Below, piece after piece: positions 22,485-24,414 of a DNA stretch of 38,281 bases. The stretch lies in the UHGV virus genome UHGV-0173928, one strand, 5' to 3'. The number at the start of each line of letters is the position of its first letter. The stretch's first letter is position 1. The notes under the pieces are model-generated. The model made no database searches, was not told the origin of the DNA, and worked only from the letters and a program-made list of their open reading frames with translations. Origin of the DNA: a virus. Made by a program: the position numbers and the translations under genes.

Positions 22485-22824
22485 TTTTGTTTCCTCGTGA
22501 AGAACCTACTTAAGGGCAGAATGATACATTTCACAATCAAAATTGCACTAATAATTTTCTTTTATTGAGTTAAATATTCAACAAATGACTAGCGGTAGAA
22601 TCACCATCATCTATTTCTGGCAGGCTGACTATGGCTACATCAATCACTACAACCCAAAGCACCCGGCAATATCCTCTGTCGCGGTATGACGACCGCAACA
22701 TAGCCGATCCAATACTCAGGGCAGAGCTACGCAAAGAGGTGATGCTTATGTGTGAATCGAACGACAAGAATCTGACGATTTATTACGTTCTTCCCGATGA
22801 GCAATATCGCCCGGATTTGCTGGC

Positions 22825-24414
22825 TTATCCGGCATTCGTGAAGACAGCTCCGCCACCGACAAAAGGTTCGATCAGGCGCTTCCCTTCTGGCAAATAGCGA
22901 AAGATTTGTTCCAGAACACCAAATTTTCCACCAGCCCATTTGAATATGGACCGTTCGAATTCTGCCGCTGGTTTAACTTTTCGCTCTTTTGTTTCACTTC
23001 CTTCTTTCTGCCGACATACGGCCTTAGTAATCCGATCGCCAATCCAGCGCATTACTGGTATTGCCATACTATTGCCGATCGCTTTGTAACGCGGTCCGTC
23101 AGCTGCAAGCATCGCGGCCTCTTCTTCGCTTAAATCTGGATAGTGATTGCGAAGATATGCCAGTTCATCTGAATTAACTTTTTTACGCTTTTCCGTCGGG
23201 ATCAACGTATGCCCATCAGGAAAACCTTGCAGCCTTTCACATTCGACAGGGGTAAGACGGCGGACAGCTACTTCTGCGTTTCTTACTTCATAGCAAACAG
23301 CTGTTGGATTTTTAGCCATTAGAGATGGTGAAGTATTCTTAGTTGCAGCATGTTGTGTACCGCTCATACGCTCAGGAAAAGCCAATGTAACAAGATGCTC
23401 ATGGCTTTCTTGCTCACGTGCCCGCAATGTACCATGCCCTTCTGACCAAAAACCTGCTCCTGTGCTGCTAAAAACGGCAAGGTCAGTGGCATCTTTAAAA
23501 TCTCTTGCCTTTACTGTCGATGCGGTTTCATCGTCAATATATTCCCCAAATGCTGCCATCCTGAAAGCGTTTACGGCTTTCGTCGATTTCATACCGGGTG
23601 GCATGTCAGCGTGTAGGCATGGATTTAGGCTTTCGCCACTGATTGCAGCGCCATTTGCAATAATGGCGGAAGCGATTTCCTTCTTTTTTCGGCTCGGCGC
23701 AATATTCCGACGCACGCCTTCGAACTCAAAAAGTACCGTTGCGGGATCGAGGTCTGTTCGAGCACTTGCGACAACAAACACGCGTCGGCGTCGTTGTGCC
23801 ACTCCGAAGTATTGGGCATCAAGGATTCTCCAGGCCACCTTTCGCTGCGGTCCATAAATACAACCACACTGCGGCCACTTTGGAGCATGGCAACCGGTTT
23901 TGCCATCCCACCGCCAGAACGCGTTACTTTTTCCTGATTCAGGTCGATCACCTGGTTCAAATGGCGCATCTTCTCCAGCCAATCCGGCAAGGAAACATCC
24001 GAAGGCGTTATCTGCCGATGACAGGACTCCTGGGACATTTTCCCAGACGATAACTGTCGGTTTGAGGAAGGACTCAGACCGTTTGTCGTCAATTGCATTT
24101 GCAAGCTCCACATACTTCAAAGTTAGCGCGCCGCGTTCATCATCAAGCCCACCACGTAAGCCCGCGATACTGAATGCCTGACAAGGCGTACCCCCGACGA
24201 GCACATCAGGGGATTCGATTTCCCCAGCCAGGACTTTTTTGGCAAGTTTTGTCATGTCGCCAAGGTTGGCGACATGGGGCCAGCGGTGCGCAAGAACGGC
24301 AGATGGAAAAGGCTCGATTTCAGCAAACCACGCCGGACGCATACCCAACGGTTCCCAGGCAATACTCGCGGCTTCAATTCCACTGCAAACAGATCCATAG
24401 CACAGCTCTTTCAC
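22825..24414 (-). CDS. dmt: C5-cytosine DNA methyltransferase with truncated C-terminal Dam-like module (Dmt-like)
   Basis: C5-MTase motifs ([37 protein letters not shown]); last ~45 aa ([35 protein letters not shown]) resemble the N-terminus of E. coli Dam, then a stop. Confidence 0.85.

Follow-up and report, generated by a model that had tools for sequence, protein, structure and literature searches.

Phage P1 and its relatives encode the two-part DNA methyltransferase Dmt, and the stretch of DNA analysed here (virus genome UHGV-0173928, 38,281 nt, hereafter the window) carries a form of it that ends shortly after its Dam-like part has begun. The question is whether this gene, which we designate dmt', represents a compact enzyme in its own right or only what is left of a longer one, and, in the latter case, what else was lost together with its end. 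The evidence given below makes us highly confident that dmt' is a product of the ordinary decay of a P1-like phage-plasmid at a deletion scar, and that no new enzyme is involved. Statements on Dmt in this text are based on the GenBank annotation and on a 2025 review (PMC12707154).

A complete C5 module followed by the beginning of a Dam module

According to the open reading frame list and the comparison with P1, dmt' extends over 22825..24414 on the minus strand, with 529 codons followed by a TAA stop codon (22825-22827), and contains no frameshifts. Its product is identical to residues 1-529 of P1 Dmt at 526 of 529 positions (99.4%), a match far above chance, the three substitutions relative to the laboratory P1 protein being W74G, R241S and S274G. 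P1 Dmt (NC_005856 / AF234172) is a bifunctional enzyme of 754 aa, C5-cytosine and Dam-type N6-adenine, and dmt' corresponds to its front 70%.

The C5-cytosine methyltransferase module (aa 1-470; 23005..24414, minus strand) contains all six conserved motifs of the family in their order: motif I (CSGIEAAS, residues 10-17), motif IV with PCQ (residues 74-82), motif VI with ENV (WENVPG, residues 124-129), motif VIII (QRRRRVF, residues 207-213), motif IX (residues 385-399) and motif X (residues 445-454). Pfam recognises it as PF00145 (C5 methylase, E 5e-37), and among solved structures the N-terminal part of the product matches M.HhaI and M.HaeIII. The complete set of C5 motifs that an earlier reading, made from the sequence alone, had ascribed to a 529-aa protein is therefore present.

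What follows is a remnant of a Dam (D12) module (aa 487-529; 22828..22956, minus strand), in which the N-terminal SAM-binding region of the Dam/D12 class is represented by its WAGGK and FxGxG motifs, while the catalytic DPPY motif, the DNA-binding domain and everything else beyond this region are absent from the product. The Pfam D12 N6-adenine methylase family (PF02086) is matched at residues 493-528 (E 1.6e-7), covering only positions 1-38 of the 253 of the profile, and the complete domain of about 240 residues is not present in the dmt' product. By comparison with solved structures, residues 487-528 (42 residues) correspond to residues 4-45 of the 278 of E. coli Dam (2g1p), with E 5e-11 for the fragment alone, which agrees with the previous statement that the last 45 or so residues resemble the SAM-binding N-terminus of Dam. 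The full D12 domain, on the other hand, is found by Pfam at residues 493-725 of P1 Dmt and at residues 411-644 of P7 Dam (profile positions 1-242/243), and the P1 reading frame continues past the point where dmt' ends (...FTNAG-YQENLL...) for 225 more residues, through DPPY, to residue 754. The sequence-only reading had allowed that P1 Dmt might have the same length and domain content as dmt', which it does not, or that a full Dam domain might be recovered on re-examination, and no such domain was found in any frame. When residues 530-754 of P1 Dmt were compared with all six frames of the window by tblastn, the best E value was about 1, and the three minus-strand frames downstream of dmt' are full of stops and, as had been described, without DPPY. 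A DNA pattern capable of coding for DPPY at 21274 (minus strand, pmgO region) was considered as a possible remnant of Dam and rejected, because it is out of frame with every open reading frame at that place.

The predicted product would thus consist of the complete C5 module and the linker, followed by 42 residues from the start of the Dam module. Since it contains neither the DPPY loop nor the DNA-binding domain, it should be unable to methylate GATC, and judging from the established architecture of D12 enzymes we infer that its Dam activity has been lost. At most, the protein could possibly act as a stand-alone m5C methyltransferase, as far as its motifs allow such a prediction; for the full-length Dmt, the P1 GenBank record words the activity as methylation 'perhaps at C5 cytosine'. 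The orphan 42-residue Dam fragment might also destabilise the protein.

The deletion junction and the DNA that it removed

Megablast against phage genomes divides this part of the window into two segments, both 99.8% identical to P1. Positions 22826-24500 correspond to P1 68000..66326, with the 5' 70% of dmt and hrdC, and positions 22200-22831 correspond to P1 78886..78256, with pmgM, pmgL and the 5' part of gene 26. The deletion junction at 22826..22827, with a microhomology of 2 bp (TA), connects codon 529/530 of dmt (P1 68000) with codon 66/67 of gene 26 (P1 about 78260), and the TAA stop of dmt' is assembled at this very junction. An overlap of 6 bp (TATCCG), as first given by BLAST, was discarded as a product of gapped extension, since the base-by-base alignment leaves only TA. 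The two breakpoints share a weak and imperfect similarity of about 20 bp (GGATTT-GCTGGCTTA-CCG and AGATTTTCCTGG-TATCCG).

Counted between anchors on both sides, the missing P1 DNA amounts to 10,260 bp (68001..78260). Comparison of the whole window with P1 revealed no trace of P1 68001..78255 in the contig, nor is there any in the closed plasmid p812A1-65K, which is described below. The proposal that the Dam half was lost by a deletion that also took neighbouring DNA, to be looked for as a junction in comparison with P1-like genomes, was therefore right in its central point, while the scale of the deletion and the loss of the tail genes and of ban had been overlooked. Most probably, illegitimate recombination between dmt and gene 26, using the 2-bp microhomology, removed the segment.

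In the P1 annotation, the missing interval comprises the Dam module of dmt, the bivalent C1 operator Oban together with the ban promoters (Pban), a dicF-like region, the genes of tRNA-Asn, tRNA-Thr and tRNA-Ile, the genes plp, upl and tciABC, the replicative helicase gene ban, dbn, the tail/baseplate genes 5, 6, 24, 7 and 25, and the last 59 codons of the baseplate gene 26. Oban/Pban, the tRNA genes and ban, which follow dmt in P1 and P7, are accordingly not found in the window, where the segment is absent; neither is the full tail/baseplate set (5, 6, 24, 7, 25, 26) with ban, the contig representing a part of the replicon only. Since six tail/baseplate genes and ban have been lost, the element would be unable to form infectious particles by itself. 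In principle, another part of the replicon, or a co-resident helper, could carry the deleted segment or a further Dam gene.

Compared with P1, dmt' is thus without residues 530-754, including DPPY, and the Oban/ban region downstream is replaced by gene 26 in antisense orientation. The distance from the dmt' stop codon to pmgL (22239..22484, minus strand), the next gene in the same direction and now directly downstream, equals 340 bp (22485-22824), as had been estimated; what does not stand is the description of this interval as an empty gap. It contains most of a gene 26 remnant, 26' (22631..22897, plus strand), composed of the first 66 codons of gene 26 (its 5' 197 nt, 22631-22827), whose product is identical to the corresponding N-terminal residues of P1 gp26 (125 aa), and of 22 out-of-frame codons that come from dmt' antisense. 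The divergent late promoters LP26/LPpmgL (22573..22601) and the C1 operator O26 (Op82; ATTGCACTAATAATTTT, 22542..22558) are also there, both identical to P1. As no terminator-like site was found between dmt' and pmgL, read-through into the pmgL operon is expected, and the dmt' transcript probably runs on into pmgL.

On the other side, dmt' keeps the place that the gene has in P1 and P7, in the uhr-hrdC-dmt operon under Pdmt and Odmt. The upstream genes are hrdC (24411-25316, minus strand), with an RdgC domain in Pfam, and uhr (25309-25593, minus strand), preceded by the promoter Pdmt (25636-25665, minus strand) and the C1 operator Odmt/Op68 (25665-25681). Because the promoter and the operator are both identical to those of P1, the expression of dmt' should stay C1-repressed, and the gene would still be expressed together with uhr and hrdC from Pdmt.

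A second carrier of the junction and the competing explanations

The window is one entire contig of a SPAdes metagenome assembly (ENA ERZ1034905, NODE_310, about 60x coverage), and the exact 529-aa dmt' protein is on record on 3-4 contigs. The same junction, identical to the base, is present in the closed plasmid p812A1-65K of E. coli EC812A1 (NZ_CP116049.1), which was sequenced independently, and its gene PIH14_RS24300 is labelled by PGAP as 'DNA cytosine methyltransferase, incomplete, missing C-terminus'. The two elements share the 26'-dmt' arrangement and the adjoining pmgL-pmgQ block. Unlike the window, p812A1-65K has a P7-type dmt allele of 447 aa, which has 82 codons fewer in the variable region separating motifs VIII and IX and is 2-18% diverged next to the junction (45 mismatches to P1 per 250 bp, while the window has 0). 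In addition, its hrdC is cut by IS26, far more phage DNA has been lost, many IS elements are present, and the plasmid has gained CTX-M-14, fosA3, floR, tet(A) and other resistance genes.

Otherwise the junction is rare. Among the sequences that contain both flanks, it occurs in one of 494 PLSDB plasmids and in one of 495 RefSeq E. coli records, and exact scans with its 28-nt sequence gave no hit in the GTDB species-representative genomes, in IMG/VR or in JGI metagenome contigs.

Since different dmt alleles stand beside the same junction, a single origin requires a later homologous exchange. One ancestral deletion followed by such an exchange would most simply account for the identical junction in two elements, as their sequences suggest, and exchange of this kind is frequent among P1-like elements (PMC10879196). 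Alternatively, a recombination hot spot may have produced this deletion on two separate occasions. In favour of that are the different alleles directly beside the junction and the similarity of about 20 bp between the breakpoints. However, this similarity is weak, an allele replacement after a single deletion is easily explained by the frequent recombination of P1-like elements (PMC10879196), and the junction agrees to the base in both elements but is missing from the other P1-like plasmids, about 494 in number. We consider a double origin unlikely, although it retains some weight. The pacB allele, which in both elements is not that of P1, was tried as a marker of common descent and abandoned as uninformative, since it is found with at least 99% identity in 224 of 593 plasmids.

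It seems very unlikely that selection has shaped the C5-only enzyme as a natural form, with dmt' as an unbroken gene for a stand-alone orphan m5C methyltransferase. Its C5 motifs are intact, residue 74 is the canonical Gly and not the residue of laboratory P1, there are no frameshifts, and NCBI holds another C5-only form, of 473 aa, which ends in the linker (WP_250394771.1, P0002, ...CRQKEGK). On the other hand, a selected enzyme would hardly carry 42 useless residues of Dam or owe its stop codon to the junction, the DNA past this stop lies within gene 26, which is encoded on the other strand, only 1 of the P1-like plasmids that have these flanks, about 494 in all, shows the form, and the protein clusters are dominated by full-length forms of 672, 754 and 1013 aa. 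The least probable explanation, with next to no chance of being true, is an assembly chimera, in which two unconnected regions of an intact P1-like genome were joined: plasmids of the P1 type are common and frequently found together, and the window is a SPAdes metagenome contig, but the 2 bp shared at the switch point are far too few for a k-mer-based misjoin, and the identical junction in NZ_CP116049.1, an independent closed isolate plasmid, rules such an artefact out. The decay of dmt by deletion therefore remains our explanation.

Another shortened dmt is known from the laboratory strain P1 dmt deltaMB (AF234173), which has an internal deletion in the gene; there, too, dmt is annotated as incomplete. 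Its genome is 319 bp shorter than AF234172 (94,481 compared with 94,800 bp), ban and the tail genes are unaffected, and its alignment to the window stops where the alignment of wild-type P1 stops, so that AF234173 does not contain the window junction.

Other forms of Dmt were noted in the course of these comparisons. At codon 74 (window 24193-24195), in motif IV, laboratory P1 has Trp (VLVWGTPCQ), while the window, P7 and p812A1-65K have Gly (VLVGGTPCQ), and Gly74 is also present in every natural relative fetched whose sequence includes motif IV. In laboratory P1, the W74 substitution may be damaging to the C5 module, which could be the reason that m5C activity of this strain has never been clearly observed. 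The 1013-aa class of Dmt in P1-like plasmids (P0019, P0024, P0025 and P0028; phages RCS47 and vB_EcoM-Ro157c2YLVW) carries an intein of 341 aa, composed of a Hint and a LAGLIDADG homing endonuclease part, which starts with CFTAGH, ends with VVHN and lies directly before the catalytic Cys of PCQ. Dmt genes are also shortened or split in ways other than this deletion, as in the 473-aa form mentioned above and in phage vB_EcoM-673R5 (locus L008), where the C5 and Dam parts are annotated as separate small genes, possibly owing to frameshifts or sequencing errors.

From phage-plasmid to plasmid

A systematic account exists of how P1-like phage-plasmids lose tail and other phage genes and so turn into plain plasmids (PMC10879196). 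Like other elements on this path, the window keeps replication, partition, cre/lox and c1, has lost tail genes and has IS elements at its borders. The pac site is intact, with 4+3 GATC hexamers, the pacA/pacB region, cre/lox and the rep/par functions are present, and among the latter are parA, parB and a diverged allele of a Rep3-type repA. With rep/par intact, the element would survive as a plasmid and no longer as a phage. Unlike more decayed P1-derived plasmids, the contig retains pac, pacAB, lpa, capsid and sheath genes, which places the element at an early stage of decay.

The sequence-only reading had also expected the element to depend on host Dam for its packaging. In principle this stands, as pac is intact; as a limit on the element it does not, since by itself the element would be unable to build tails in any case. 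For P1 itself, dmt is required only when the host is Dam- (PMC12707154).

A more far-reaching scenario can be formulated, in which plasmids that carry the dmt'-26' deletion form a circulating lineage, derived from P1 and without tails, the C5 module with its canonical G74 acts as an orphan m5C methyltransferase, and the intact pac/pacAB would let a co-resident P1-like helper package and move the plasmid, with GATC methylation supplied by the helper Dmt or by host Dam. We regard this combination as improbable.

As for annotation, the correct labels are a truncated dmt at a deletion junction for the gene and a defective P1-like plasmid for the contig. A truncated allele of a well-known gene in a well-known family, already flagged in RefSeq, is unsurprising to a specialist. 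It supplies a further dated step in the decay, already documented, of P1-like phage-plasmids to plain plasmids, which often carry resistance genes, and the junction sequence CCCGGATTTGCTGGCTTATCCGGCATTC could serve as a lineage marker, the same scar being found in a plasmid with CTX-M-14 and fosA3. Beyond correct annotation and this possible marker, its significance is small.

Several further features of the contig deserve mention. It represents only a part of the element, bordered by IS1 at the left end and by a widely repeated sequence at the right end. At its start, the end of an IS1 (window 1-54) abuts the last 421 bp of darB (54-475; P1 10890..10469), so that this anti-restriction gene is truncated as well, and the contig breaks at that repeat. 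At the other end, the last 113 bp (38169-38281) are not P1 and are probably the end of an IS; a 132-bp query (38150-38281), which includes 19 bp of P1 flank, has matches in 1,121 plasmids, of which many are conjugative, and in 34 plasmids at least 80% of the query is matched. The insertion point downstream of pmgF may therefore be common to other P1-like plasmids.

In its DNA sequence, the repA-incA region (28007-30267) does not resemble that of P1. It encodes the Rep3-type initiator (28176..29096, 306 aa) and, between repA and parA, at the place of the incA iterons of P1, an extra gene for a 269-aa protein with a T5orf172 domain (29389..30198). Finally, at 1195-2602 the EcoP1I res/mod genes of P1 are replaced by a gene for a SIR2-like protein of 434 aa (open reading frame 1236..2540, minus strand; PF13289, E 2e-23), with PDC-S25, ThsA and LmuA as its best matches among defence systems. 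This is a swap of defence genes at the lxc-mat variable spot.
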